Shown: piece after piece, positions 1,967 to 45,278 of the stretch
Numbering within the stretch: position 1 is the stretch's first letter
Layout of the letters: the number at the start of each line of letters is the position of its first letter
Translations under genes and position numbers: made by a program
Source: Nitrospiria bacterium
GTDB taxonomy: Bacteria > Nitrospirota > UBA9217
Length of the DNA stretch: 64,000 nucleotides
Direction of reading: 5' to 3'
Assembly (NCBI GenBank): GCA_919901555.1
Contig: CAKKPG010000012.1
Location: 10,654 to 74,653 of the forward strand
The notes under the pieces: generated by a model
The model's input: only the letters and a program-made list of their open reading frames with translations
What the model was told of the DNA's origin: nothing
Databases searched by the model: none

Positions 1967-3364
1967 TCAACCCTTATCGAACAATCCCAGCTGCGCGATC
2001 ATCTCGTCCGGGAACGGCACGGGATACTCGCCGTCGAAGCAGGCCACGCAATAGTTCAAGGGGCGCTGCACCACCTTCTGCACCCCCTCAAGGCTGAGGT
2101 AGCCGATGGTGTCCGCGGTGATGTACTTTCTGATCTCTTCGATGCTGTGTGTCGAAGCGATAAGCTCCTGACGCGTGGGCGTATCGATGCCGTAAAAACA
2201 GGGATACACGGTCGGCGGCGAACTGATGCGCATGTGGATCTCCGTCGCGCCCGCGTTCCGGATCATCTTGATGATCTTCTTGCTCGTCGTGCCGCGGACA
2301 ATGGAGTCGTCTACGATGATCACCCGCTTTCCCTTGAGGGCGTCCCGCACCGGGTTGAGCTTGATCTTGACGCCGAAGTGTCTGATGCTCTGGCGCGGCT
2401 CGATGAAGGTGCGGCCCACGTAGTGGTTTCTTATCAGACCTGTGTCAAAGGGGATGCCCGATTCCTCCGCGTACCCGAGGGCCGCGGGCAGACCGGAATC
2501 GGGTACGGGAATCACCACGTCCGCCTCCACTCCGGCCTCACGGGCCAGCTGCTTGCCGAATTCCTTCCGGATGGTGTAGACGTTCTGGCCGAACACCATG
2601 CTGTCGGGCCGGGCAAAGTAGATGAATTCGAAGATGCAGTGGGAGGGTTCTGCGCGGGTAAAGGGAAAGGACGAACGGAGCCCCTTATCGTTGATGACCA
2701 CCATTTCTCCCGGTTCAATTTCCCGTATATAGGTCGCCTCGATCAGATCGAAGGCGCATGTCTCCGACGCGAAAACATAGGCCCCATCGAGCTCGCCGAG
2801 CACAAGCGGCCTGAATCCGTGGGGGTCCCGCACCCCGATCAGCTCATCCTCCGTAATAAGGAGCAGGCTGTACGAACCCTGTACATGGCCCAGGGCGTCC
2901 ACGATCCGGTCGTGAATGTTGGCCATCCGTGACTGGGCGATGAGATGGATGATCACTTCGCTGTCCATGGTGGACTGGAAAATGGAGCCGTAGGCCTCGA
3001 GCTCGTCCTTGAGGATGCCGGCGTTCACCAGGTTCCCGTTGTGCGCGATAGCCAGGCCGCCCAGGGCGAAATTCACGCGGATCGGCTGGATGTTCATGCT
3101 CGTGCTCTCGCCGGTGGTGGAATAGCGGTTGTGGCCGATGGCAAGGTGCCCGGGGAGCTTCTTGATCCGTTCTTCGTCGAAGATGTCGGCCACGAGGCCC
3201 ATGGACTTCTCGCTGTACAGCACCTTGCCGTCCGACGATACGATCCCCGCCGACTCCTGGCCCCGGTGCTGGAGGGCATAGAGCCCCAGGTAGGTCAGGT
3301 TGGAAGCGTCGGGATGACCGTAGACCCCGAATACACCGCACTCTTCATGGAACTTGTCAAACAT
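1967..3364 (-). CDS. purF: Amidophosphoribosyltransferase with a short N-terminal propeptide before the catalytic Cys
   Basis: 465 aa. [16 protein letters not shown] (N-terminal nucleophile Cys after the propeptide), the PRTase motif [13 protein letters not shown], and a C-terminal Cys cluster for an Fe-S centre. Confidence 0.9.
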
Positions 3365-3404
3365 AATCCATACCAGCTTCCTCTTTCACCACGAAGACAC
3401 GAAG

Positions 3405-3535
3405 TCCGGCGAATGCAAAATGCAGAGTGCAAAATGCAAAAGTCAAAATGAATGAAGGAATAGAAATCATGGCCGAAGGCCATACCGTAATTTTGCAATT
3501 TGCATTTTGCAATTTGACTTTTGCATTGCTTTCCT
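3405..3535. repeat. Intergenic hairpin repeat built from CAAAATGC units (purB-purF spacer)
   Basis: gcaaaatgcagagtgcaaaatgcaaaagtcaaaatg faces its near-complement attttgcaatttgcattttgcaatttgacttttgcattgc. The loop contains the nested palindrome atggccgaaggccat. Confidence 0.6.
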
Positions 3536-3541
3536 TGTGTC

Positions 3542-4870
3542 TTAGTGCCTTGGTGCCTTCGTGGTGATATTTGTCCTTTTATTAAAAACCCTCTTGAAAA
3601 TGTAATCCACCTTCTTGAGCGTGTGCGACAGATCAAAGCAGGCGTCGATCTCCCGGTCCGTGAGCTGCTCCCCGATGACCCGATCGAGCTTCAGGCGCTC
3701 TTTGAAGTCGCCGCCGTGCTTCCAGATGTGCATCGCGTTCCGCTGCACGGCGGCGTAGGCGGTCTCGCGTTGCAGGCCTTTTCCCACCAGCGCCAGCATG
3801 ACCGCCTCCGAATGGAAGAGCCCCCGCGATATCTCCATGTTGCGCTTCATGTTCTCCGGGTAGACAAAGAGCCTGTCCACGAGGCTGGTGAACCGCGCAA
3901 GCATGTAGTCGATGAGGATGGTGCTGTCGGGGACGATGATCCGCTCTACCGAGGAATGGCTGATGTCCCGCTCGTGCCACAGGGCCACGTTCTCCATGGC
4001 CGCGAAGGCGTTCGCACGCACCACCCGCGCGAGGCCGGTGAGGTTCTCGGCGGAGATGGGGTTGCGCTTGTGCGGCATGGCCGATGAGCCCTTCTGGCCT
4101 TCGGAGAAATACTCCTCCGCTTCGAGCACCTCCGTCCGCTGGAGATGGCGGAGCTCGACGGAGAATTTTTCAAGGGATGATGCAATGAGGGCGAGCGTTG
4201 TCAGGAACTCGGCGTGGCGGTCACGCTGCACCACCTGGGTCGCCACGGGCTCGGGCTCGAGCCCGAGCTTCCGGCAGACATAGCGCTCCACGAAGGGGTC
4301 GATGTTCGCAAAAGTCCCCACCGCGCCGGACACCTTGCCCACGCTGATCACGTCCCTGGCGCGCAGCATGCGCTCCAGCGCCCTGTTCATCTCCTCGTAC
4401 CAGAGCGCCATCTTGAGACCGAACGTGACCGGCTCCGCATGCACCCCATGGGAGCGGCCGATCATGACGGTATCTTTGTATCGGCGCGCCTTTTTCCTGA
4501 GTACGCCCAGGAGGAGGCGGATGTCCTTGATGATGATGTCGGCGGCCCGGCGCATGAGGGCGGCCAGCGCCGTATCGAGGACGTCGGACGACGTGAGCCC
4601 CAGGTGGATGTAGCGCGAATCGGGGCCCACCTTTTCATTGACCGCCGTGAGAAAAGCGATGACGTCGTGCTTCACGGTCTTTTCGAGCTCATCGATCCGC
4701 TTGACGTTGAAGTCCGCTTTTTTTCTGATCGTCGCGAGGGCCCGGGCAGGGATCAAGCCCAGGCGGGCATTCGCCTCGCACGCGAGAATTTCGACCTCGA
4801 GCCATGTCCGGTACCTGTTTTCAGGTTCCCAGAGGCCGGCCATCTCCGGCCTGCTGTACCGAGAAATCAT
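3542..4870 (-). CDS. purB: Adenylosuccinate lyase
   Basis: Start taken at [10 protein letters not shown], the ATG at 4870 with a GGGAGG SD. The ORF track extends to 4963 without support. Body shows conserved fumarate-lyase signatures. Confidence 0.9.
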
Positions 4871-22276: not shown

Positions 22277-22630
22277 ATGAAAACTGCCAAACTGCTTGTC
22301 GTGCTGGGGGAGAAAATACGGGAGGTAAGGAAAGGGAAAAAGCTTTCCCAGGAACGGCTTGCCGAACTGTCGAATTTGCACCCGACATATATTTCCGACA
22401 TCGAAAACGGCAAGGTGAACGCCTCCCTCTACAGCTACTATCAAATTGCTCAAGCCCTTACTATCCCGCTGTCCGAACTTGTCGTATTGCCTCAACCAAA
22501 GGCTGAACGACAAATCGAATTCAAGCTTACGGAGTTATTCAGCCAAGCGAGAGCTCTCGACAGAAAAAAGAAAGCCGTATTCATAGCGGCTGCCCGTGGT
22601 CTTCTTTCAGGGATCGATGAAGTGCTGTAG
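22277..22630 (+). CDS. XRE-family helix-turn-helix transcriptional regulator (divergent from cassette 1)
   Basis: 117 aa. LGEKIREVRKGKKLSQERLAELSNLHPTYISDIENGK is a canonical HTH_3. Confidence 0.8.
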   Translation: MKTAKLLVVLGEKIREVRKGKKLSQERLAELSNLHPTYISDIENGKVNASLYSYYQIAQALTIPLSELVVLPQPKAERQIEFKLTELFSQARALDRKKKAVFIAAARGLLSGIDEVL

Positions 22631-22697: not shown

Positions 22698-23573
22698 CTA
22701 TGTCTCCCCTCGCTCGCGGAACAGCCGCGACGCTCTTGCCCGCAGCGTGCATACGGGGCAGCCTCCTCTTCTGTATCTATCGATGATTCTTTCTCGATAT
22801 TCATGCCCTTTCCGGCATTTCCACCATACGAGGCGCGTGGAAAATGGGGAGACGTCCTTCGGCGTCCAGGTCCCGTTCTTCGCAGAATGCCACTCGCGGG
22901 ACAGCCACGGCGCTTTGGCCTCAAGGCAGTTCTCCTCGGCCGGCCTTCGCCCTGAACAGTAAGGGCATCCGTCTCCTTCGCTTCTGTTCTCTACAACAGA
23001 TTGCCATTCATGACCTTTTCGGCATATCCACCAGACTTTTTTGTTGGATTTAGGGAGAACATCCTTCGGCGTCAAAGGAGCATTCTTCGTATGATGCCAC
23101 TCGCGGGCAAGCTTTGGATCTACGGCCTGAAGGCAGGTATCAGCGGTTGCTTGTCGTCCTGAGCAACAAGGGCACCCGTAACCGGAGGTCCTTCTATATA
23201 AGGGGGCCGGCCACTCATGCCCTTTCTTGCACACCCACCAGACTTTCCTGCCGGAGCCGGCAGTGACATCTTTCGTCGTCAGAGGAGCATTTTTCGTCGG
23301 ATGCCACTCCCTGGCCAGCTTCGGATTTACGGTTTTTAGACAATTGTCTTTATTCACTCTTCGTCCAGAGCAATATGGGCAGCCTTCGTCTCGGCCTCTG
23401 TCCGAGATGCGAGCATCCCACTCATGACCTTTATCGCAGAGCCACCAGACTTTGATATGCGCGCCAGGGGTCACATCCTTCGGCGTAAGCGGTGCGTTCT
23501 TCGTGGGGTGCCACTGGCGTGCGAGCGCCCTGTTCACTTTAGCGAGTGTAGGTTTCACGTTCTGTTTTATCAT
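22698..23573 (-). CDS. Protein of four tandem treble-clef zinc-ribbon repeats (DUF4379-like)
   Basis: 291 aa. Four repeats of about 63 aa: LAREWHPTKNAPLTPKDV...KVWW.C.KGHEW.......GCPYCSGRR. Its ATG overlaps the stop of the upstream 527-aa ORF (ATGA). Confidence 0.7.
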   Translation of the reverse strand: MIKQNVKPTLAKVNRALARQWHPTKNAPLTPKDVTPGAHIKVWWLCDKGHEWDARISDRGRDEGCPYCSGRRVNKDNCLKTVNPKLAREWHPTKNAPLTTKDVTAGSGRKVWWVCKKGHEWPAPLYRRTSGYGCPCCSGRQATADTCLQAVDPKLAREWHHTKNAPLTPKDVLPKSNKKVWWICRKGHEWQSVVENRSEGDGCPYCSGRRPAEENCLEAKAPWLSREWHSAKNGTWTPKDVSPFSTRLVWWKCRKGHEYRERIIDRYRRGGCPVCTLRARASRLFRERGET

Positions 23574-25096
23574 GCAATGTTACTGGCTTTGGTGAGTTCG
23601 GTTATCTGATTGCCTGAATCTGCAACCAGATAAAGAGTATGCGCACCGTCTCCCCTGAGGGTCACGCCGATTGTCCCGGTGCGGACCTCCGTGCCCGTAA
23701 GGCCGGAAATATTTCCGGTCTGGAGGAGCGTCCCGCCAGAGGCGGGGTCCCCGTCGTAGAGAGATATGGTAAATGCCCCTGTCTCGGACTCGCCCAGGTT
23801 TCTGACCTTGTATTCCAGAGTGAAGGCAGTTCCGGCACTCGGAACATAGGTCGAAGGCTTGAGGTCTTCGGAGTAAACGGCAATATCAGGTTCGGTTGCT
23901 ACCCAGATGCGGGATGAGGATTTGTTGTCACTCTCTGATGTTTCGGAGATGGTATTGTCCGGGTCTGCGACAACGAAGATCGTCTTGCCGCCGGTGCCGG
24001 TAAAGGATTGAGAGATGGATGCTTGAGACGATGAATTGACGGATAAAGAAGGAAGGATTTGATCGACACCAATTTGCATGCCGCCGGCAGAGGGATCTCC
24101 AAGATAAAACCGAACAACAATATCCGATGCACTGTCATAGCCTGAATTGCGAACGTTTGCGGTGAGCGTTATCGTCTCCCCTTCTCGCGGCATGGGATTG
24201 GTGAACGATACCGATGCTACTGAAAGGTTTGGTCGTACACTCGCCAGCGCACGAAGAGCCAAAGCGGTCGAGTAAGGATCATCATTCCAACTGCCATTAG
24301 CTGATTGACTTGTAGTCAGATAATTTACCGTTGCAGGAACGACCGCTGAAACATTCGATCCGCTTGCTATCAGGGCATCAAGCGCCAGAGCTGATTCGTA
24401 AACTTTTGACGGCGAACTTCCAAAACCACCATCGGCATTCTGCTTTGAAAGCAGATAAGCGACAGCCTTGTCTATTGAGCTTTGGACATTGAAGGTAACA
24501 TTATTGTATGACGCTAACATTTGAAGTATAGTAGCAGTCAAGTAAACATTGCTGACCGCGTCATCCTTGAATCCCCAGCCGCCATCATTTTTTTGATTCG
24601 AAGTAAGATAATTTATCGCTTGGAAGAGAACGCCAAAGTCGGAATAATTTGCTGAACGAAGAGCTTGCAAGGCAAGGGTGGTATCTAAAATGCCGTCGTC
24701 AAAACCCTTATGTGTCCCCCAGCCGCCAACAACAAGATCGCGATAATAGAGCAGCACTTCGACTTCAGCGGATGCATCCATACCTGCTCGTTTGAGCGCG
24801 GCAATCCGCCGTGAGAGATAATCCGTTGGCGAAACAGCCTGGCTGCTGAGCCACGTAAGACCCTCAGTATACGTCGAACTCGTTGGCTCAAAGACATAGA
24901 CAGCATCCAGCGCAGCGGATGTGGAGTAGTACTCAGTCGTCTCTACAGCGGGCCAATTACCGGTAGTGGTCTGGGCGGAATTGAGCCACCTGAGGCCTGT
25001 CGGAATTTGCGGTATTTGAGCGGATGCAAAAGAGGTAAATAAAAACATTAAGAATGAACCAATCAGAAAGCTCAAGCGACTTGCTCTTTTGAACAT
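23570..25096 (-). CDS. Truncated paralog of the giant protein (signal peptide, alpha/alpha-toroid domain and about 2.5 CARDB modules); possibly a decayed copy
   Basis: Start MFKRASRLSFLIG at 25096 with a GGAGGAGG SD. About 80 aa of the mature N-terminus are identical to the giant protein. It ends inside a CARDB module (LYLVADSGNQITELTKASNIA-stop) where the giant protein continues. Confidence 0.6.
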   Translation of the reverse strand: MFKRASRLSFLIGSFLMFLFTSFASAQIPQIPTGLRWLNSAQTTTGNWPAVETTEYYSTSAALDAVYVFEPTSSTYTEGLTWLSSQAVSPTDYLSRRIAALKRAGMDASAEVEVLLYYRDLVVGGWGTHKGFDDGILDTTLALQALRSANYSDFGVLFQAINYLTSNQKNDGGWGFKDDAVSNVYLTATILQMLASYNNVTFNVQSSIDKAVAYLLSKQNADGGFGSSPSKVYESALALDALIASGSNVSAVVPATVNYLTTSQSANGSWNDDPYSTALALRALASVRPNLSVASVSFTNPMPREGETITLTANVRNSGYDSASDIVVRFYLGDPSAGGMQIGVDQILPSLSVNSSSQASISQSFTGTGGKTIFVVADPDNTISETSESDNKSSSRIWVATEPDIAVYSEDLKPSTYVPSAGTAFTLEYKVRNLGESETGAFTISLYDGDPASGGTLLQTGNISGLTGTEVRTGTIGVTLRGDGAHTLYLVADSGNQITELTKASNIA

Positions 25097-25160
25097 AGCT
25101 CCTCCTCCGACACCGATGATCCCAGCATGCATGATAACCACAGGCGCAAGCATAGAAAAA

Positions 25161-29830: not shown

Positions 29831-30163
29831 ATGAAAATCAAGAGCGCCTCTATTAAACAACAAGTGGGCTTACGCATCAAACATGTAAGAAAAACCAGGG
29901 GCCTATCTCAGGAAAAACTCTCCGAGAAGGTCGCCATGAGTTCGAAGTATTTGAGCAGTATCGAAAGAGGGAAAGAGAACCCTACTTTGGATACCTTCAT
30001 TAAATTGGCACAGGCATTGAACGTCGAAATTTCTGAATTGTTCAATTATGCCGGCGAAAAGTCCGTTCAGGAATCTAAAAAGTACCTCCTCGATTTAATG
30101 AAGGGCAGTGACAAGGAGAAGCTTGATCTCGCGGTTAAGATGCTAAGAGCGCTTTACTTGTAG
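29831..30163 (+). CDS. XRE-family helix-turn-helix transcriptional regulator (divergent from cassette 2)
   Basis: 110 aa. VGLRIKHVRKTRGLSQEKLSEKVAMSSKYLSSIERGK is an HTH_3. Confidence 0.8.
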   Translation: MKIKSASIKQQVGLRIKHVRKTRGLSQEKLSEKVAMSSKYLSSIERGKENPTLDTFIKLAQALNVEISELFNYAGEKSVQESKKYLLDLMKGSDKEKLDLAVKMLRALYL

Positions 30164-30212: not shown

Positions 30213-32969
30213 TTACTTCTCCAGCGGCTTCAGATACCCGTCCTTATCAAGTATGATTTCGTTGCTATTGCTCTTGATTTTGATCTCAGTCTGTCCGTCT
30301 CCATCAAAATCCGAGATTACGAGAGCGCTGTCGTATGACGCGAACAGCGCATCGGGCGCAAGATTGTTCAGATACACCGGCCCCCATTTGATTTTGCCGT
30401 CATGCTCGGTCAAATAGACGCTCCCTTCCATATATTGTGCCGGAGAATACACCTGCGTAATGAGCAGAACAATCTCGGGCAAGCGATCGTCATTGAATTT
30501 AGCAATTGTATATGTGCCTGTTCCTAAGAACTTATCCACTCCTGCTGTATATCTGCCGTCGTTGTCTTTGTCTTCGAAAATGAGAATACTGGCGGAATCA
30601 GCAATCTTTGCGTTACCGGTGTTTTCGAATGCTGCTTTCACATGAGGGGACAAGGTTAAGGTCTGGCTGGTGAAGAGCATGCTTGTAAAGTTCGGCGCTG
30701 TTGGTACGTTATCGGGGCCGAGAATTTCGTCCGGCACCTTGATCTTGAGTGAGCGGATGGCCTGGTTGTTGGTCTCGTAGAGTTCGGTGACGACGCTTTC
30801 CGTGTCCGTGATGGCGTAGAACCGGTAGGTCCAGGGGACTGCGGTGAAGGTGTAGGGGAGCGTAGTTGTTCCGTCTCCCTGTATGCTGTCTACTGTATAC
30901 GTCGTTAAAAGCGTCCCTCCTGAAGCGGGGTCTCCGTCATAGAGCGCGAGGTTGAAGGCGCCCGTCTCCCTGATGCCCGCGTTGTGGACCGTGACGGAGA
31001 GGAGAACGGAGTCGCCGGAAACGGGATGGGACGGGGTAAAAGACAGGTCCGTTGCGGAAATGGTGATGTCCACCATATCGGTCATGACCCGGACCGCGGC
31101 GGTGTTGTTGCTTTCATCGGCTTCGGATATCGCGTTCGTTTGGTCAGCGATGACGTAGAGGTCATGAATGCCGGAACTGATCGTCCAGCTTGCGGTCGCC
31201 GTGTATGTCCCGCCTGAAGCGAGGGATGAGACTGTCTCGCTCTTGATGAGCGTGCCGCCGGATTCCGGCGCATTGTCGTAGATGTCCACGGTAAAGGAGC
31301 CTGCGTCCGCGTATCCCTGGTTCCGGATGATCGCGCTGATCTGGACAGTCTGGTTGGCTGTGGGCCGGCTGGGGGTGAGGGTGATTTCGCCGGACGTAAC
31401 CGCAAGGTCAACCTGTCCCTGCAAGCCCCCGACGGTGACCGTGACCGTGCCGGTGTTGTTGGTCTCGGATAATTCAGGGATCAGGGTTCCGGGGTCAGCG
31501 GTCAGGTAAAGCGTATGCGAGCCGTCGCCGGTAAGCGTGACGCCGAAAGAGCCCGTGCGGACCGCTGTGCCCACAAGACCGGAAATATTTCCGGTCTGAA
31601 GGAGCGTCCCGCCAGAGGCGGGGTCCCCATCGTAGAGAGATATGGTAAAAGCCCCTGTCTCGGACTCACCCAGGTTCCTGACCGTGTATTCCAGTGTGAA
31701 CGCAGTTCCGGCACTCGGAACATAGGTCGAAGGTTTCAGGTCTTCGGAGTAAACGGCAATATCCGGCCCCGTCGCGACCCAGATGCGGGCAGAGGATTTG
31801 TTGTCACTCTCTGAGGTTTCGGAGATGGTATTGTCCGGGTCCGCGACCACGAAGATGGTCTTGCCGCCCGTGCCGGTGAAGGATTGTGTGATCGAGACTT
31901 GAGATGATGAATTGACGGATAAAGAAGGAATGATTTGATCAGAACCAATTTGAGTTCCGCCAGCAGAAGGGTCACCGAGATAAAAACGAACGATTATATT
32001 AGAAGCGTTGTCGAATCCCGTGTTCTTTACTGCAGCAGTAATCGTGATGGACTCATTTTCTATCGGCATTGACTTTGAAAGGGAAATATCACTTGATGAA
32101 ATAACAAGATTAGGCCTCGCGCTCGCGAGCGCGCGCAAGGCAAGCGCCGTGGAATAGGGATCGTCATTCCAACTGCCGTCCGATAACTGATTTGTGGTGA
32201 GATAGGCGGCGCCGTTGGATACAACGGTTGTGATATTGGCCGCTCCGCTCGAAATCAATGCGTCGAGCGCTAAACCGGAATCGTAAACCATAGAAGGACT
32301 GGAGCCGAAACCACCGTCCGGATTCTGTTTCGTGAGGAGATACGCAATTGTCCTGTCAATCGAACTTTGAACGTTGAAGGTGACGCTATTATATGAAGAC
32401 AAGGTTTTCAAGACTGCGGCGGTTGCGAAAACATTGCTGTCCTCACCGGCCGCGAAGCCCCAGCCGCCGTCCGAATTTTGATTCGAGGTAATGAAATTTA
32501 CGGCCTGAAAAAGAACAGAATAATCGGAGTAAGCCAGTGCCTGGAGAGCCTGGAGGGCGAGAGCCGTGTCCAGGATATTGTAAAAATATTCCGAATCGCC
32601 TCCCCATGCGCCGTCGGAATTGCGGTAAAGAAGCAACCCCTCTAATTCGCTGGAAGTGTCCTGTCCGGCGCGTTTAAGCGCGATGATCCGTCTCGAGAGA
32701 TAATCCGTCGGCGATACGACTTGGCCGCTCATCCACTGAAAGGCCGTGCTGTATGCAGGGTTTAAGGGATCAAGGGCATAAACAGCATCCAGTGCCGCGG
32801 CCGTGGAGTAATAATCGGTGGTCGTGACCTCCGGCCAATTTCCGGCGGACGTCTGCGAAGAATAAAGCCACGTGAGGCCGGAGGAAATTTGGGGAGATTG
32901 GGCAAAAGCGAAAGAATGTATTGTCGATAATAAGATAAAAGCAGCGATGATTTGGACGCTTTTTCGCAT
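30213..32969 (-). CDS. Internally deleted and C-terminally truncated paralog of the giant protein (cassette 3)
   Basis: Start MRKSVQIIAAFILL at 32969 with a GGAGGAGC SD. Same alpha/alpha-toroid domain and CARDB series. It jumps from ...LGTGTYTIAKFNDDRLPEIV into an FG-GAP segment that lies about 300 aa further on in the giant protein, then terminates. Confidence 0.65.
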   Translation of the reverse strand: MRKSVQIIAAFILLSTIHSFAFAQSPQISSGLTWLYSSQTSAGNWPEVTTTDYYSTAAALDAVYALDPLNPAYSTAFQWMSGQVVSPTDYLSRRIIALKRAGQDTSSELEGLLLYRNSDGAWGGDSEYFYNILDTALALQALQALAYSDYSVLFQAVNFITSNQNSDGGWGFAAGEDSNVFATAAVLKTLSSYNSVTFNVQSSIDRTIAYLLTKQNPDGGFGSSPSMVYDSGLALDALISSGAANITTVVSNGAAYLTTNQLSDGSWNDDPYSTALALRALASARPNLVISSSDISLSKSMPIENESITITAAVKNTGFDNASNIIVRFYLGDPSAGGTQIGSDQIIPSLSVNSSSQVSITQSFTGTGGKTIFVVADPDNTISETSESDNKSSARIWVATGPDIAVYSEDLKPSTYVPSAGTAFTLEYTVRNLGESETGAFTISLYDGDPASGGTLLQTGNISGLVGTAVRTGSFGVTLTGDGSHTLYLTADPGTLIPELSETNNTGTVTVTVGGLQGQVDLAVTSGEITLTPSRPTANQTVQISAIIRNQGYADAGSFTVDIYDNAPESGGTLIKSETVSSLASGGTYTATASWTISSGIHDLYVIADQTNAISEADESNNTAAVRVMTDMVDITISATDLSFTPSHPVSGDSVLLSVTVHNAGIRETGAFNLALYDGDPASGGTLLTTYTVDSIQGDGTTTLPYTFTAVPWTYRFYAITDTESVVTELYETNNQAIRSLKIKVPDEILGPDNVPTAPNFTSMLFTSQTLTLSPHVKAAFENTGNAKIADSASILIFEDKDNDGRYTAGVDKFLGTGTYTIAKFNDDRLPEIVLLITQVYSPAQYMEGSVYLTEHDGKIKWGPVYLNNLAPDALFASYDSALVISDFDGDGQTEIKIKSNSNEIILDKDGYLKPLEK

Positions 32970-33561: not shown

Positions 33562-36500
33562 TCAATAACAAGGATTATTATAATTAATATCGCCAAACCA
33601 AAATTGGTAAGCGTCTATTATAACGGGAGCACAAGGAAGCGCACACCACCACGCCCTGCCTCTCGCAGATGTTTGTACTAATTTTACAAAAAACTGAAAA
33701 AGGATACTCGCAGCGAAAATGATCACTGGAAACCAAACTGCAAGTACTACAAGGAAGAAGGCCAGCATAAGAGATATCACTGTCATAATTGCTATAAACC
33801 AAATGTCAGCACTTGTCATGGACGACCAATTTAAAGCATTTCCTGATTCTAGGTAAGAATCAATCCAGCTTAAAGCTTCAACACTAAATGCATATCCAGC
33901 ACTTGGCGCGCCTATGTTGCAAAACATGAGGAGGATATCTTTTAAACAATCAGTCAACGCTTGCCAACCACCATTTGAACCTCCGCTGATTTTATATGCT
34001 CCAGCACCAGTAAATGGATCCTGAATTATATATCCTACACCAACCGACCCATAGTAGGATGCTGCCCTTGCGGGTACCGTTACAATCTTGCCAGCTCCGA
34101 TGGCATTATTAATGTCAGCTATAACATCAGATGACACCTGGAGTTTTGGAAGAATTGTTGCTATATTATTTGATGTGATAGTGTAAATGGGTATTCCAGC
34201 CTTATTTGCCGCATTAAGCAGGCTTATCGTCGAAATGGCAGGTATCTTTGAAAGTGTTTCTGCATGATTATGTTCTAAGCCTGATGATATATAGCCTGCC
34301 GTCTCCATGAATTGTTTTGTCTTTTCTTGGTCACCTGTTTTTGAAAACACAGTGAAAATATTTCTGTCGACATCGATTCCATAACCTTCGAGATCAAAGT
34401 TCTTAGGAATAGAAAAAAGATAAGTAACCGAAGGCACTGCAGATGTGATGGCCGCTGAGATGCCCTTTGCAGCGGTTACACCATTAAGCCATTCCGCTAT
34501 CCCAAGCATCTTGCCTTGTGCATAAAAATAATAGAGCCCTTGCAGCCATAACCAATCTCCTATCAATTTATCTCGTTCTACAACTGGCTGTTCTCCATTA
34601 TTCAATTGAGCCTTCATTGCTTCAAGAGTACTTTTAAATTTAAGTGCATTAGTCTCCAAAATACTATACAAAAACCGTTGTGGTTCCACGACGATTGCAG
34701 AATATCCACCGGCATCAAAAACATTTTGAACTCGATCAGTACCTATTCCTGGATCATAAAATGCCATGATGAAGTCATGTGAAACGCCTAATTGCATTTG
34801 TGGACCAGACGCTACCGTCGCACCGTCGATCTTTATCACGGGACGTAGGGTTAGGAGATAGGGCGGAACTTTCGTCACATCTCCCCCGTAACGATTCAGC
34901 AAATCAGAATCAGCCTGCGTAGCGGGATCATATGACAACGTGATCTTTTTCCCCGCAATCGATGGGAGCTGTGATGTATATGAGAACCCGCTATTTGAGC
35001 CGGACATATCAGAAATTTCAAATGTTAATGTCGCTCTGTACTTTGCTGGTACATCAGCGAATTCCGAGCCAATTTGAATAGTCTTGTACGGCAGGGTGCC
35101 CATGAGGTAAGGAAATTCCTGTTTGACGATCTCTTTTTTACCGATGACGTCTCCTACCGTAGCGTTCGGATGGTTCTGGGTGATGTAATCCTGGACCTGG
35201 GTCTGGTAGTCCTGCATGGCTTGCTGGATATACGCTGAATCGACGTTCGTTACATATCCTTCCGTTTCGTTGATCGTCGCCGTGGATTGGAGCTGGCTTA
35301 CGAATGTTTGAGCATCAAAAGGCACGGCAGAACTGATGTCGATACCCTGGGTGTAGGTGTATTGCTTGTAACTGGGGTCGAGCGGTATCCAGGTATCGCC
35401 CTGCTTGTGGACCGCGCCGCGTGAAGGGATATAGTCAATAAAAGCTTTTACGTAAACATGCTCCATCTGAACATTTTTGTAAACGCCGCCGCTCGTTTTC
35501 ATGAGGGTGACCGGTATGCCGTTCGTGGCCAGTATCGTTCCTGCCATCTTGTAATCGGTCACGCCCCCCACCCAGTTCATGACTTTATCAATCGGTATTT
35601 CGACGGTGCCGTACACGTACCGGGCGGAAATACCGGACGTGCGAAGCAAAGCGATTAGCAAGCTGGCAGTGTCGAAATCGTTGCAAATCTTCGTCTGGAG
35701 ACACATGTCGGCGCCCTGGATGGAGCCATAGGTAGGGACGAATTCGATGTTGTTCCTGACCCACTCGTAGATTTTGACCGGGCTGTATCCGAGTTCCGCT
35801 GCCTTGGCCTTGATATCGTCAGTAAATTGAATTTCGATCCCATTTTCGGCGAGATCGTCAGCAGTAGGCGCGTCTGCCGCCTGCGCAAGAAGGATCGGTG
35901 TTGAATCGCTGAGGGCTAATTGGGGAATGAAATCATTTATAGATGTCGATGAGGATGCTGAGAGTCGGTCTGATCGAAATGAAACCGGCTGATCACTAAA
36001 CGTCCCACTATCATTGAATGCCAACTGAATGGGCTTATGCTTGATGCGTGTTAATAAGCCTGTCCCCGAATAGTTTAATCGGGGATGATCATTCGCGGCA
36101 ATAGTATTTTCAACGCTTGCGAGCTTCTTAGCTTTTTTGTGTGACGGAAAATCTTTTTCAAACTCCTCTTTTTTTAACCTCGGCGCTCTTTCCTTGGCCT
36201 TGACGGTCCTGAACGGCAGCTTGTTCGGGTCGAGCGGAACGTGCTTCGTTGGAGGCTTGGTTTTATCGAGATGGGCCTTGGCTTTTTTCAGCGCCTCTCT
36301 TCCCTGTTTACTGCCTACTGCATACTTCCCTACTTCTTCCAGGTTGGCCCTTAACTCTGCAAGGTTGTCTTCGTAGTGCTTTACGAATTTATAATGCCGG
36401 TCGAGGATTTCCTTCGGCAGCTTCGCGTCTTTGAGCTTCTTCTCAGTTGCGGCGAATTCCGCTTTTAGCTCAATATCTATTTTCTCAATCTCTGTTCTCT

Positions 36501-36813
36501 TTGCCTTTACCTCCGCGACCTCAGCGGTGATGTCTGCCGTCCCTTCGACTTTGCTCAGGGCAAGCTTCTCCTGCGCTTTGTGGATCTTCTCGCGGACCGC
36601 CTCCAGCGCCTTCTCGAACTTTTCTTCCGGCCTCTGGACCAAGGCAACCGTGTTGCCGTCCTTTACGCCGACGCGGTCGGCTCGCTCCATATTCCGCACT
36701 CGCGGCGGCTCCGCCGCCCATACCACGGCCGCATACAGCGGCATGTACGTCCAGCAGAAGAAAAACAACGTAAGTGCAGAAACCATCTTCAAAATCCGAG
36801 AAAAAGTCCGCAT
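33562..36813 (-). CDS. Membrane-anchored transglutaminase-like domain protein, cassette 3
   Basis: 1083 aa, a paralog. Core IYEWVRNNIEFVPTYGSIQGADMCLQTKICNDFDTASLLIALLRTSG (Cys), HVYVKAFIDY (His), WIPLDPS (Asp). Confidence 0.8.
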   Translation of the reverse strand: MRTFSRILKMVSALTLFFFCWTYMPLYAAVVWAAEPPRVRNMERADRVGVKDGNTVALVQRPEEKFEKALEAVREKIHKAQEKLALSKVEGTADITAEVAEVKAKRTEIEKIDIELKAEFAATEKKLKDAKLPKEILDRHYKFVKHYEDNLAELRANLEEVGKYAVGSKQGREALKKAKAHLDKTKPPTKHVPLDPNKLPFRTVKAKERAPRLKKEEFEKDFPSHKKAKKLASVENTIAANDHPRLNYSGTGLLTRIKHKPIQLAFNDSGTFSDQPVSFRSDRLSASSSTSINDFIPQLALSDSTPILLAQAADAPTADDLAENGIEIQFTDDIKAKAAELGYSPVKIYEWVRNNIEFVPTYGSIQGADMCLQTKICNDFDTASLLIALLRTSGISARYVYGTVEIPIDKVMNWVGGVTDYKMAGTILATNGIPVTLMKTSGGVYKNVQMEHVYVKAFIDYIPSRGAVHKQGDTWIPLDPSYKQYTYTQGIDISSAVPFDAQTFVSQLQSTATINETEGYVTNVDSAYIQQAMQDYQTQVQDYITQNHPNATVGDVIGKKEIVKQEFPYLMGTLPYKTIQIGSEFADVPAKYRATLTFEISDMSGSNSGFSYTSQLPSIAGKKITLSYDPATQADSDLLNRYGGDVTKVPPYLLTLRPVIKIDGATVASGPQMQLGVSHDFIMAFYDPGIGTDRVQNVFDAGGYSAIVVEPQRFLYSILETNALKFKSTLEAMKAQLNNGEQPVVERDKLIGDWLWLQGLYYFYAQGKMLGIAEWLNGVTAAKGISAAITSAVPSVTYLFSIPKNFDLEGYGIDVDRNIFTVFSKTGDQEKTKQFMETAGYISSGLEHNHAETLSKIPAISTISLLNAANKAGIPIYTITSNNIATILPKLQVSSDVIADINNAIGAGKIVTVPARAASYYGSVGVGYIIQDPFTGAGAYKISGGSNGGWQALTDCLKDILLMFCNIGAPSAGYAFSVEALSWIDSYLESGNALNWSSMTSADIWFIAIMTVISLMLAFFLVVLAVWFPVIIFAASILFQFFVKLVQTSARGRAWWCALPCAPVIIDAYQFWFGDINYNNPCY

Positions 36814-36831
36814 GATATGTTCTCCTGAACT

Positions 36832-37191
36832 TTATTCCGTCTTATTCATCAGACGAATCCTTACACGATATCTATCCACGGTAATCAGAGCTTTCTGGTT
36901 TATAGCATCTTGATGCGTTTCGATCAATCGGAGCAATATCTTTCCTTGATCCCTCGCGGGGATATCCACCAGCCGTATGATTGTCGAGTGCGGCTTGCCG
37001 AAAACGAAGACGAGTTCGCCAAAATCCTTGTCGGCTGTGACCAAAATAGAGTCTTCGTCGACTGAGCGCTGAATAATGGCCTCATCACCCGGGTCTTTTC
37101 CCGTCTCGGGAATCCACACGACATCGAAGCCCGCCCCTCTGAGTGCTTTGACGGCAAAGCTCGATATGCAACTGTCGACAAGGAACTTCAT
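36832..37191 (-). CDS. DUF5615 PIN-like domain protein (putative toxin)
   Basis: 119 aa starting MKFLVDSC...GFDVVW...ILVTADKDFGEL. Follows the DUF433 gene with a 2-nt gap. Confidence 0.7.
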   Translation of the reverse strand: MKFLVDSCISSFAVKALRGAGFDVVWIPETGKDPGDEAIIQRSVDEDSILVTADKDFGELVFVFGKPHSTIIRLVDIPARDQGKILLRLIETHQDAINQKALITVDRYRVRIRLMNKTE

Positions 37192-37193
37192 CT

Positions 37194-37436
37194 CTAAGCT
37201 ACGAGAGCGGGCTCGATCCGCTCATGAGATACCATCCGATGGGCAAATACGAGGCACGCCTGAATATCTTCCTTTTCCAGGAAAGGATACGCCTCTAACA
37301 ACTCTTCGACAGTTGAACCGGCTGCCATCATCCCGAGAATATGTTCGACGGCTATCCTCATGCCACGAATGATCGGCTTCCCTCCGAAAATTGCGGGATT
37401 GAACGTGATACGTTTTAGAATCTCTTCCTCGTGCAT
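37194..37436 (-). CDS. DUF433 domain protein (putative antitoxin)
   Basis: 80 aa. FGGKPIIRGMRIAVEHILGMMAAGSTVEELLEAYPFLEKEDIQACLVFA is the DUF433 signature. Confidence 0.7.
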   Translation of the reverse strand: MHEEEILKRITFNPAIFGGKPIIRGMRIAVEHILGMMAAGSTVEELLEAYPFLEKEDIQACLVFAHRMVSHERIEPALVA

Positions 37437-37499
37437 TTTTTGACCTCCCCGTTTGATTTATGCTCAAGTATACATTATGTTCTTTGCGCTGTGCAAGGG

Positions 37500-37620
37500 G
37501 TTTTTATTGTCTCTTTCCGATGTCTCGGATATCTGATTGTCAGGATCAACAACGACGAAGATGGTCTTCCCGCCTGTGCCGGTGAAAGAAGCTGCTACTA
37601 AGGTCCTTGAGAGTCCTGAG
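37500..37620 (-). pseudogene. About 40-codon relic of a CARDB-module gene of the giant-protein family
   Basis: The minus-strand translation ...SFTGTGGKTIFVVVDPDNQISETSERD matches the paralogs (QSFTGTGGKTIFVKVDPDNIISETNEMDN). It is bounded by a stop upstream and non-coding DNA downstream. Confidence 0.6.
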
Positions 37621-37627
37621 TTCTAAG

Positions 37628-38050
37628 TCATTTTATCTGATTGCGGTTGGCCAAGTCCACCTTTATCTTTGAGTGCTCGATGGATAGGTCTATCCACTTT
37701 TCGGCCAGTTTTTTAAACTTCTTATAGGTCTTGATCTGCTCTCTCAGTTCAGCGACATGGTGCGTCCTGACATAGTTGGTCTTGCTTTTCATCTTATGCG
37801 TGTAGCTGAGTTGGTAGAACTCCCATTTTTTGTCCTTAACATTCCGGTACAGCTTGGTTAGTGAGCCTGGACGCATTTCGTCGATTCCCATCAGCTCCCG
37901 TTTGATCTCTTCTATCTGCTGTTTAATCCGCGCAAGCCTTTTGTCCGCCATAACCGCTCCTCTCTGTCTAGGTGAAGGGCATGGGGACAAAGGGCATGGG
38001 GACAGGTCTTGAAATATAAGAAACTGCCTTTTCAACGGGCTGTTGCCCAA
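37628..38050 (-). CDS. Small hypothetical protein (DUF6788-like), paralogous to the ORF at 44649..44993
   Basis: Similar to 44649..44993 in ...GSLTKLYRNVKDKKWEFYQLSYTHKMKSKTNYV..ELREQIKTYKKFKKLAEKW. Start uncertain (MADKRLARIK at 37951 plausible). Confidence 0.4.
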   Translation of the reverse strand: MGNSPLKRQFLIFQDLSPCPLSPCPSPRQRGAVMADKRLARIKQQIEEIKRELMGIDEMRPGSLTKLYRNVKDKKWEFYQLSYTHKMKSKTNYVRTHHVAELREQIKTYKKFKKLAEKWIDLSIEHSKIKVDLANRNQIK

Positions 38051-38159
38051 ATCACTTTACGGCAAATATGTCATTCTGAGCGTAGCGAAGAATCCCGCAT
38101 TTACAATACGATGGCAGACCCTTCACTGCGTTCAGGGTGACAAAATCGGTTTGGGCAAC

Positions 38160-38280
38160 AGGCCGTCAAGACTTGACCCCAAATGCCAAAAATGCCAAAA
38201 TGCCAAATGCTTTGACCCCAAATGCTTTGACCCCAAATGCTTAAATGCTTACATGACCCCAAATGCTTATTCTGCCTCTT
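38160..38280. repeat. Tandem simple repeats: ccaaaa(a)tg three times, then ccccaaatgctttga three times
   Basis: caaaaatgccaaaaatgccaaaatgccaaatgctttgaccccaaatgctttgaccccaaatgctt..., non-coding. Confidence 0.7.
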
Positions 38281-42357: not shown

Positions 42358-43105
42358 TCTTCAACCGTGACAGCGTTGTCATCATCGAAGATATGACTCT
42401 CTATCCGCATGGACGAGCTTATCATTCTTTCGCCCAGGTTAAAAAAACATAGATCCTGCAAAAAGTCCGTATATAGCAATAGTGCTCCATATCGAAATCA
42501 TTGTTGTGGTTGATGATGCGTCATAAAAATCTGTAATTATTTTTTGTTCTCTTTCGGTCGCGCCGTACTTTTTTGACAAAATGCTGCTTGCTGACACCGA
42601 ATGCAGGCAAGAACGATACGATATAGAAAATTAGATAGAATGTCGCCAACGCGAAAAGAAATTTCCTCATATCTTGGCACCTCTTTGGGTCTGTGTCGAC
42701 TTACCAGGCTGCCTCGGTGATGAGAAACGTATTCATATCTTTTTTCACAATTCGTGTTTTTGAATTCTTGACATCCAGATGCCAATTGTCACGGAGGTCA
42801 ACGGTGAGTATCTTTCTCAGGTTCTTTCCCGACTTATCGGCTATCCATAGAATCGTTGCCGTAGTTACTGCTTTTGTTTTTCTGTATTTTTCGCAATTCT
42901 TATCAATAGATTTACACCGATGTTCAGCACAACAAAGAACATTCCGACTGCCACACTGCACAGTACCAATGTGATCAAAAAAAGGGAAGGGGTAACAGTT
43001 TAGTCCTTTCGTCCCCCTGCCGAAGACAGTCCGGCCCTCTTAGTCCAGCAGACCTGCGAGGCCGGAAAGAGCTATGAGCGTATTGTACCGGCTCTGCATA
43101 TTTCT

Positions 43106-44680
43106 TCAACTCGAATTATTATACAGTGCGGCCTGGGCTGTTGCGGTATCGGCCGTATGGAGGGTCTGCAGAAACTCCCTTGGATGGACATTCTGCCTTC
43201 TGGCGGTCTGGATGAGCGTGGGGATGATACTGTGGGTCTTTATTCCGCTGTTCGATCTCGTCCCGAAGCACACCTTGCGGAAGATCACCATGTGCCGAAG
43301 CGACTGTTCGGCATGATTGTTCGTCGGCGGCACGCCGGGGATGCGCAGGAAGGTGAAGAGGCGCTTCTGCTCAGGGCCGATGAGGTACGACCGCAGAGTC
43401 TCGGCGGGTTTGAACCGGAGCGGCCGCTTGCAGATTTCATTGAGTTCAGCAACAAAGCGTTTTTCGATATCGGCCGCCTTCTTCCAGGGGAGGCCGCCGG
43501 ATTCTAGTTTCCGTCCCGCATCGCAGGCTTGTTTGCCGAGGTCTGCGACATTGCTCACGAGGGATTCCACGCAGCGGTCCTTTTCCGGCTGCGGCAAAAG
43601 CGCGTGCTCCCGGCCGAGGTCCTTGGCGTTGGTGATGATATGCGCCAGACACGCCTGCCAGTCGAGACCAATGCCGTTATATGCGGCATAGCGGTCGCGC
43701 ATCAGCGTACCGTCAAAATTATTTCCAAAGACAGTTTTCGCCGCATCCGCAGATCGGCGCCGGTCTATGTGGAAGAAGGCCAGATCGTCATTTCCCGCGA
43801 ACCATACAAAATACCCCTTGCCGTCATTTCTCCAGGAGGTTTCATCAGCATGGACTACAGGGGAAACCCGTATTTTCTCCCGCACATCCTCATAGATTGG
43901 TTCTCCCTTTTTTGCCGTCTTCCGGTCAAACCCCACGAGCGAGGCCGGAGCGCAGAAGAGCCCGAACAGGTCTTCAAGTATCAGCTGCGTCTTCCGGTAG
44001 GAGATGCCGACCCTATAGCGAAGATACCCGGCAGTGGATTTTGCAGCCGGCCCGATCGGGGCGTTCGGGATCTCGTCCGGCCCCGCTTGCACAACGGACC
44101 GGTTGCAGCGAGGGCAGAACGCCTCCGCATGCACATACTTCGTGACCATGGTCTTGGGCTTGACGACAATATCCTCCTGGATGTGCTCGTGGAACGTGTT
44201 CTCGGGCGTCAAATCATTTGACCCGCAGTGGGGACAGACGGTCGGAACGGGAACTGGGATAATCCGGTCAATCCGCGTCGGGATGGGCCTCGTCCATGCC
44301 GGATGCCCCTTCGGCGCCCCGCGCTTCTTTGGTTTCGCGTTGATAGATGATGAACCGTGCCTGCTGTCCGTCTCAGCCTGTTTTCGGTTCGGCTTGAACT
44401 GCTTTCTATGCAATGCCTGATACTTGGCCCGAAGCTCCGCATTCTCCCGTTCCAGGACCCGTATCCGCCCATCCCGCTCCTGTACCGCTTCCCGAAAATT
44501 ATCGATGATCCGCAGATGCCCATGATATACATCATCGGCCCGACGGTACTCGCTCAGGACCCACGACGTGGACAGACCGTCCAGATAAGGGCAGGTGTGC
44601 TCATAGAGACAGACAAAATCATGGGCGGCCAGGGATGCCGGGACATTCCTATTTGCTCTCCAAATTGAGCAGCTCCCAAT
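43106..44680 (-). CDS. IS66-family transposase (TnpC-like); the canonical start codon is missing or displaced
   Basis: The ORF track calls 43106..44413 from a TTG. The frame stays open to 44680 and encodes a leucine-zipper-like N-terminus (REAVQERDGRIRVLERENAELRAKYQALHRKQ) with no ATG/GTG/TTG, suggesting a frameshift from the upstream ORF or decay. Confidence 0.7.
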   Translation of the reverse strand: MGSCSIWRANRNVPASLAAHDFVCLYEHTCPYLDGLSTSWVLSEYRRADDVYHGHLRIIDNFREAVQERDGRIRVLERENAELRAKYQALHRKQFKPNRKQAETDSRHGSSSINAKPKKRGAPKGHPAWTRPIPTRIDRIIPVPVPTVCPHCGSNDLTPENTFHEHIQEDIVVKPKTMVTKYVHAEAFCPRCNRSVVQAGPDEIPNAPIGPAAKSTAGYLRYRVGISYRKTQLILEDLFGLFCAPASLVGFDRKTAKKGEPIYEDVREKIRVSPVVHADETSWRNDGKGYFVWFAGNDDLAFFHIDRRRSADAAKTVFGNNFDGTLMRDRYAAYNGIGLDWQACLAHIITNAKDLGREHALLPQPEKDRCVESLVSNVADLGKQACDAGRKLESGGLPWKKAADIEKRFVAELNEICKRPLRFKPAETLRSYLIGPEQKRLFTFLRIPGVPPTNNHAEQSLRHMVIFRKVCFGTRSNSGIKTHSIIPTLIQTARRQNVHPREFLQTLHTADTATAQAALYNNSS

Positions 44681-44993
44681 TTACCTTCGATAGTTTCTGG
44701 ATCAGCGTCCAGAGCTTCTTATACCACACGCTCATCTCCGTCGCCATGGGGGCGATGTCCTTCCTGACGTACAGTGTAACGGTTTTTCCTTCCACCTTGG
44801 TCGTCAGGTTGTGCCCGGACATGGAAGGGGATTTGGCGACGGTGCCGATCAGGTAGCTGTCGAGCATCGCCGAGATGTCCTCCCGCAGCCGGACTCGCTG
44901 TTTCTTTAAAAGATCGATTCGCTTCATGGGTTTTGGCCTCCTTCTTGCATGAGTATTAATACTCACATAGGTATACCGAAAAAGCGCCCACAA
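44649..44993 (-). CDS. Small DUF6788-like protein encoded at the 5' end of the IS
   Basis: 114 aa. ...LTTKVEGKTVTLYVRKDIAPMATEMSVWYKKLWTLIQKLSKVNWELLNLE. Overlaps the open transposase frame by about 30 nt. Confidence 0.5.
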   Translation of the reverse strand: MWALFRYTYVSINTHARRRPKPMKRIDLLKKQRVRLREDISAMLDSYLIGTVAKSPSMSGHNLTTKVEGKTVTLYVRKDIAPMATEMSVWYKKLWTLIQKLSKVNWELLNLESK

Positions 44994-45278
44994 GTCAAGA
45001 ACTATGTGGGCGCGTGATCAAAAAAGTTCAAAAACGGCTAAACTGTTACGCTTGTTTCTATCATACATGTCCCAAACAGTCATTCTTTTTTCCGCCCCCT
45101 GTCCAACGACTGGACTTTTATACCACAAGCCCATTGCTCACCTATTGCCGGATGCAGCAGAAAATAGTTTATCCTAAATGTTTTAGGTGCTCGCCGGAGG
45201 TGAGGAAAGACAGAATGGTTTTCAGAACCTGGAATTTTGACTGGAAAAGAGCAGACGTGATGGGTCAGGGAAAATTCG

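Follow-up and report, generated by a model that had tools for sequence, protein, structure and literature searches.

A CARDB-module relic between an IS701-like remnant and a DUF433/DUF5615 module in a Nitrospirota surface-protein locus

The window, by which we mean the whole stretch of 64,000 nucleotides analyzed here, belongs to a Nitrospirota population of the Hainich groundwater metagenomes and carries an array of three cassettes on its minus strand, each with a transglutaminase-like gene and a TED/CARDB gene. Upstream of cassette 3, between a DUF6788 gene and a DUF433/DUF5615 pair, lies a short stretch whose minus-strand frame from 37628 translates as T*NSGLSRTLVAASFTGTGGKTIFVVVDPDNQISETSERDNKNPLHSAKNIMYT*. 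The first-pass annotation had read this peptide as an orphan relic of a CARDB module, and the features of the locus are collected in Table 1.

Table 1. Features at and around the relic, with the corresponding elements in the cassette array and in other contigs
Feature	Position	Strand	Remarks
CARDB relic	37500-37605	-	End of module 1 of a lost TED/CARDB paralogue; last beta-strands
Intact relic counterpart, cassette-3 CARDB gene	31794-31904	-	aa 373-409
Intact relic counterpart, cassette-2 CARDB gene	23918-24028	-	aa 376-412
Intact relic counterpart, cassette-1 giant CARDB gene	17107-17199	-	aa 360-390
Right terminal inverted repeat of decayed IS701-like element	37606-37627	-	CTTAGAACTCAGGACTCTCAAG; homology of other copies stops at 37606
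DUF6788 gene	37628-37951	-	107 aa from ATG at 37951; predicted accessory gene of IS701-like element
Sigma-70-like promoter candidate for TA operon	37467-37495	-	TGCACA-17-TATACT; consensus match only
DUF433 (COG2442) antitoxin-like gene	37194-37436	-	Pfam 85.3 bits
DUF5615/Mut7-C-like PIN toxin-like gene	36832-37191	-	Pfam 74.2 bits; 2 nt past antitoxin stop
Surviving native transglutaminase leader	36814-36840	-	Includes RBS AGGAG
Transglutaminase-like gene, cassette 3	33562-36813	-	1083 aa; starts 18 nt after toxin stop
Complete DUF6788-carrying IS	L037 4459-6347; L038 4455-6346; L049 ~2480-4362		

In cassettes 1 and 2 a divergent XRE/HTH_3 gene lies upstream of the transglutaminase gene (22277-22630 and 29831-30163), whereas in cassette 3 the DUF433/DUF5615 pair stands at that position, an arrangement already recognized in the first-pass annotation. 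The cassette-2 CARDB gene has only 527 aa (22698-25153 region), with its stop codon overlapping a gene that encodes four DUF4379 treble-clef zinc-finger repeats (267 bits). Three small open reading frames without a Pfam match (107, 135, and 140 aa) are found in cassette 2, and one of 165 to 175 aa in each of cassettes 1 and 3. These differences are additional indications that the cassette is decaying or being remodeled.

With the three transglutaminases as queries, the genome collection yielded 26 loci, all from Nitrospirota and Geobacterales and none above 52% identity; one CARDB-XRE-transglutaminase arrangement was seen among them (L015). Since DUF6788, DUF433, and DUF5615 lie near the cassette in none of these 26 loci, no close relative provides synteny for the region. 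The cassette of transglutaminase and TED-like/CARDB genes is itself widespread in Nitrospirota and in Geobacterales/Desulfuromonadota (L011 to L036), and tandem pairs are frequent there (L015, L021, and L022). The literature that we searched held no paper combining CARDB, transglutaminase, and thioester and none describing the cassette.

A coding fragment of a CARDB domain

The relic peptide was searched against the window by tblastn and matches the CARDB genes of cassette 2 (73% identity over 37 aa, E = 5e-15), cassette 3 (73% over 37 aa, E = 7e-15), and cassette 1 (77% over 31 aa, E = 1e-12), with weaker matches to other CARDB modules. The three counterparts lie at the equivalent position in all three genes, and a reciprocal search with the three CARDB proteins returned the relic site as the sole match outside the cassette array. 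At the nucleotide level, positions 37503 to 37589 are 78% identical to 31797-31883 and 77% identical to 23921-24007 over 87 nt (blastn, E = 2e-14 and 2e-13). Chance similarity to CARDB was rejected on the tblastn E-values, and the peptide comes from the same gene family and is truncated on either side, just as the first-pass annotation had it.

Scored alone against the Pfam CARDB profile (PF07705), the relic reaches 20.7 bits (E = 5e-4) over profile positions 73 to 98 of 101, slightly less than the gathering score of 22.7 bits, which is expected because it represents only a quarter of the domain. The reference CARDB genes pass with 208 bits for cassette 3 and 102 bits for cassette 2. The relic is a piece of a CARDB domain, not a domain, and its alignment places it in module 1, which follows a TED/prenyltransferase-like toroid and of which it represents the C-terminal quarter.

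The firm core of the relic comprises 30 codons (37500-37589). The eight codons upstream of SFTG cannot be aligned to the local paralogues at the DNA level, while the "VAAS" ahead of FTG resembles "IIAS" and "ITAS" in two distant homologues. As the neighboring element ends at 37606, this resemblance indicates that the relic probably reaches 37605, and its length is therefore refined from the 40 codons first estimated to about 35. No Rfam family matches the relic, and in the whole window Rfam yields a single tRNA (1760-1832).

Within the core, 16 to 17 of the 21 to 22 mismatches to cassettes 2 and 3 fall at third codon positions, and over 29 codons pS is 0.68 to 0.73 against a pN of 0.097 in the same two comparisons. 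This third-position bias, with pS far above pN, argues that the sequence diverged while it was coding, and its truncation would be recent enough for neither a frameshift nor an excess of replacements to have appeared. The segment is 93% identical between cassettes 2 and 3, and cassette 1 is as distant from both as the relic is, which argues for a separate paralogue as parent. Judged by this pattern of divergence, the parent appears to be a functional, distinct paralogue under selection and not a recent copy of any of cassettes 1 to 3.

The frame as it now stands has no ATG, GTG, or TTG to open it, carries an in-frame TAG upstream at 37623-37625, and is offset from the frame of the DUF6788 gene. 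Its GC3 of 0.57 is inside the range for local genes, and GC and GC3 were set aside as uninformative tests of foreign origin. The intact parent gene was seen in no contig found. A word-index protein search with a 41-aa relic query gave no candidate parent, and a degenerate DNA pattern for GKTIFVxxDPDN produced only two matches among metagenome contigs, both of them distant homologues (72 to 78% amino acid identity to the relic) and neither of them the donor. A 10-nt direct repeat, TATCTGATTG (37530-37539 and 37634-37643), was considered as deletion microhomology and rejected as a probable chance match, since roughly one such pair per 1.8 kb is estimated to arise by chance.

The two borders of the relic

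The families flanking the relic had been named correctly in the first-pass annotation. On the 5' side, the region 37628-38050 matches Pfam DUF6788 (PF20586) with 41.9 bits, above the cut-off of 27.2. Its homologues number 1,143, many of them on contigs of 1 to 4 kb, as is typical of repeated elements. In three loci (L037, L038, and L049) the DUF6788 gene lies 98 to 113 nt from a divergent DDE_5 transposase of 426 to 466 aa; such transposases match Pfam DDE_5, and those of L037 and L038 score 129 to 138 bits against the IS701 model NF049999, whose cut-off is 170 bits. Inverted repeats of 20 to 21 nt, (A)CTTGAGAGTGCGGT, are found in L037 and L038 at a spacing of about 1.9 kb, and the left repeat is also present in L049. 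No direct repeat was recognized as a target-site duplication around the three complete copies. The arrangement of these copies suggests that DUF6788 is a divergently transcribed accessory gene of an IS701-like element of about 1.9 kb with defined inverted repeats.

Conservation across seven DUF6788 loci stops at ...ACTCTCAAG, 23 nt beyond the stop codon. Five independent copies (L037, L038, L039, L046, and L049) are 79 to 88% identical to the window in blastn, and all five alignments terminate at 37606. This shared end identifies 37606-37627 as the right inverted repeat, with the relic starting at the next base, so that an IS end, which the first-pass annotation had suggested looking for in this area, lies directly against the relic. 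On the upstream side, the window resembles the IS for no more than about 20 nt ahead of the DUF6788 ATG. What remains of the element is 358 bp (37606-37963), from which the transposase and the left repeat are missing. Orphan DUF6788 copies without a transposase are found in the window and also in L046 to L048.

The predicted fold of DUF6788 consists of a helix, a three-stranded sheet, and a long helix (pLDDT 84.6); the model has no match in the PDB with an E-value below 0.2, and we found no paper on the family in the literature searched. A second DUF6788-like gene, which had been proposed within an IS66 element at 44649-44993, could not be upheld: it scores 16.5 bits in Pfam against the cut-off of 27.2, and its comparison with the first gene gives an E-value of 0.11 in BLASTP and of 0.048 in hhalign, with a probability of 1%. 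The IS66-family transposase of that element (43106-44993) matches NF033517 with 214 bits and is preceded by a 92-aa open reading frame that is weakly DUF6788-like, and TTTTTTGATCAC flanks the element on both sides, near 45020-45030 and 42975-42985.

The 3' edge of the relic lies at about 37500, where similarity to cassettes 1 to 3 stops. The promoter candidate starts 5 nt past this point, overlapping the palindrome TTGCACAGCGCAA, and is followed by a ribosome binding site, the DUF433 gene, and the DUF5615 gene. Both genes are above their Pfam cut-offs and adjacent, with the antitoxin first. Relatives of the DUF433 protein with 80 to 91% identity are found beside unrelated genes in several phyla, which argues that the module is mobile, and by its families and order the pair would be a VapBC-type module. 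Its left boundary rests solely on where the similarity to the cassettes stops, and because the DNA upstream of its relatives is not conserved, these cannot confirm that border.

In VapBC10 of Synechocystis, which pairs a DUF433/COG2442 antitoxin with a PIN-like toxin, both toxicity and neutralization have been validated (PMC3834315), and COG2442/PIN-like pairs are classified with the COG4634/PIN_10 group (PMC5499597). The pair in the window is like VapBC10-type modules in its Pfam families, its bicistronic organization with the antitoxin first, and the many unrelated genomic contexts of its relatives. It is unlike them in that the predicted pair here stands immediately upstream (18 nt, 36814-36831) of a large transglutaminase gene lacking its own leader.

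Cassettes 1 and 2 have a conserved leader of about 170 nt in common, of which cassette 3 retains only the last 25 nt or so. No further promoter-like site was found on the minus strand between 36813 and 37467, and it is reasonable to suppose that transglutaminase 3 may be transcribed from the putative TA promoter. With the leader and the XRE partner lost, the cassette-3 operon may now depend on that promoter.

Variation of the locus between strains

We compared the window with 12 related metagenome contigs (L001 to L010, L040, and L043). The relic is unchanged in all 12, and over the part of 37250-38035 that each contig covers, none differs from the window. Differences between strains start inside the toxin gene, where about 10 substitutions are clustered in 28 nt (37120-37147 of the DUF5615 gene); the 800 bp upstream of this cluster, which hold DUF433, the relic, and DUF6788, are invariant. 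At 38035-38218, strain divergence rises from 0.03% to about 1%.

In four contigs (L001 to L003 and L040) there is a single cassette, in which the cassette-3 head (to 30712) is joined directly to the giant-gene body (from 16025), with the junction in L001 at about 16710. In the window this body bears a different head, that of cassette 1, with 67% amino acid identity. Compared with the single-cassette contigs, the window is longer by 14.7 kb, made up of the cassette-3 tail, an XRE gene, cassette 2, a second XRE gene, transglutaminase 1, a membrane gene, and the cassette-1 head. The single-cassette contigs represent either real head swapping between strains or assembly collapse. The difference in cassette content among strains indicates that turnover at the locus is real; none of the contigs compared has a variant that restores the relic parent.

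One contig, L005, contains the DUF6788-relic-DUF433 block with 100% identity over 888 bp (window 38035-37148), adjoining a ComEC-like gene where the window has an AraC-type regulator. This different upstream gene indicates that the block, or its upstream junction, has moved at least once. The switch between L005 and the window falls in an array of GACCCCAAAT(G/A)C repeats. In the window, GACCCCAAATGC direct repeats are found at 38173-38271, upstream of the DUF6788 stump, with four exact copies where 0.68 would be expected, and L005 has a related GACCCCAAATAC array at 2640-2700, beside the ComEC-like gene. The repeat array upstream of the stump looks like a recombination border.

The same stretch of the window also holds a MITE of 130 bp (38036-38165) with 16-bp terminal inverted repeats (CGGGCTGTTGCCCAAA and TTTGGGCAACAGGCCG). 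It encloses a hairpin (GTCATTCTGAGCG...CGTTCAGGGTGAC) and is flanked by a 4-bp target duplication, TCAA, at 38032-35 and 38166-69. This element is polymorphic, being present in the window and L007, and the empty site (GAAACTGCCTTTTCAAGACTTGACCCC) is found in L001, L002, and L008.

Origin and meaning of the relic

We consider it probable that the relic is an inert fragment of a pseudogene, delimited by insertion of an IS on one side and by replacement with a TA module on the other. An IS701-like element, with DUF6788 divergent from its DDE transposase, would have entered the first CARDB module of the parent gene and so set the 5' edge at 37605/37606. The transposase half of the element would then have been lost together with all of the sequence upstream. 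The mobile DUF433/DUF5615 module, bringing its own promoter, would have replaced the 3' remainder of the gene and, in doing so, taken away the XRE regulator along with the transglutaminase-3 leader, except for the last 25 nt or so. The relic would now be no more than inert DNA separating the DUF6788 stop from the TA promoter. The order of these steps is the one that we infer from the present arrangement. The structure of the relic requires at least three events; the proposal in the first-pass annotation that DUF6788 was delivered by an insertion or deletion is right in that the gene arrived by insertion, with the repeat end of its IS701-like element at 37606, and falls short in assuming a single event.

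Whether this was the site of a fourth cassette containing the parent gene, destroyed in place as first proposed, is a more even matter. The relic belongs to the same family as the array genes, lies on the same strand, and sits where the next tandem cassette would be, all of which counts for a fourth cassette decayed in situ. Against this, the search of the window with the three CARDB proteins revealed no further remnant of such a cassette outside the array. We regard the idea as plausible and unproven, with about an even chance of being correct.

The main alternative is that the relic was flanking DNA of the IS remnant or TA module at a previous site, whether in this genome or a different one, and that recombination brought it in with DUF6788 and/or the TA pair. 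The identical block beside a different gene in L005, the jump in divergence at 38035-38218 as a sign of recombination at a border, and the lack of other fourth-cassette remnants in the window would all fit such a history. The strand and position of the relic, however, are those expected for a tandem cassette of the paralogous array, its GC3 is that of local genes, and the L005 breakpoint is upstream of DUF6788 rather than between the relic and cassette 3, and we regard transport from elsewhere as unlikely. Retention of the relic for a function, whether it served the TA promoter as an upstream element, encoded a small peptide, or acted as a silent recombination donor for the CARDB genes, is very improbable. 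Its location directly upstream of a promoter-like site and its invariance in 12 of 12 contigs might suggest a role, but since all of 37250-38035 is invariant, this says nothing about the relic in particular. Moreover, a start codon is absent and a stop lies upstream in frame, which speaks against a peptide, efficient homologous recombination needs a longer and more similar tract than 87 nt at 77 to 78% identity, and Rfam offers no family. As a short noncoding copy of a segment of a surface-protein gene, the relic also recalls the template repeat of a diversity-generating retroelement targeting the CARDB modules. The mismatch spectrum contradicts this reading, the relic base being A at only 7 to 10 of 21 to 30 mismatches, with a third-position bias instead, and no reverse transcriptase is present among the genes annotated up to 10 kb upstream or scanned across the downstream cassette array; we give it practically no credence.

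A broader and, in our judgment, doubtful reading takes the relic as the footprint of an ongoing replacement of "head cassettes." The transglutaminase, the small membrane protein, and the N-terminal TED/CARDB head would be swapped as a unit before a common giant CARDB/FG-GAP body, and displaced heads would become truncated genes (527 aa and 935 aa) and finally relics. The same reading includes the possibility that the TA module may be the only promoter for the downstream transglutaminase operon, which is the sole cassette in single-cassette strains. If this were true, expression of the surface system would be coupled to TA autoregulation.

The inert fragment that we favor can be compared with other remnants of genes disrupted by an IS. 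As in these, the coding sequence is cut off precisely where the terminal inverted repeat of an IS has its outer end, and the fragment keeps its frame and a synonymous-biased divergence while the start and the rest of the gene are gone. It is unlike them in that the IS has been reduced to a 358-bp stump, with the accessory gene and one inverted repeat, and in that the other side of the relic was removed by a separate element, the TA module. Polymorphic surface-protein and toxin loci such as Rhs and CdiA contain orphan or displaced cassettes. The present locus shares with them the tandem, partly truncated paralogues beside one full-length gene and the differences between strains in the head joined to a common body. 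In contrast to Rhs and CdiA, it is the N-terminal heads and the transglutaminase partner that are duplicated here, not C-terminal toxin tips; there are no immunity genes, and a relic of this length could not act as a module.

The relic itself is of little import, being a case of ordinary genome decay with both borders explained. The by-products of the analysis may be more useful, namely, the DUF6788-carrying IS, the polymorphic 130-bp MITE, and a TA pair occupying the site where a large operon would otherwise have its own regulator and leader. As a datable scar, the relic indicates that this Nitrospirota groundwater population remodels its transglutaminase/TED-CARDB surface-protein locus, and it points to IS insertion, TA-module insertion, and cassette recombination as the routes by which it does so.
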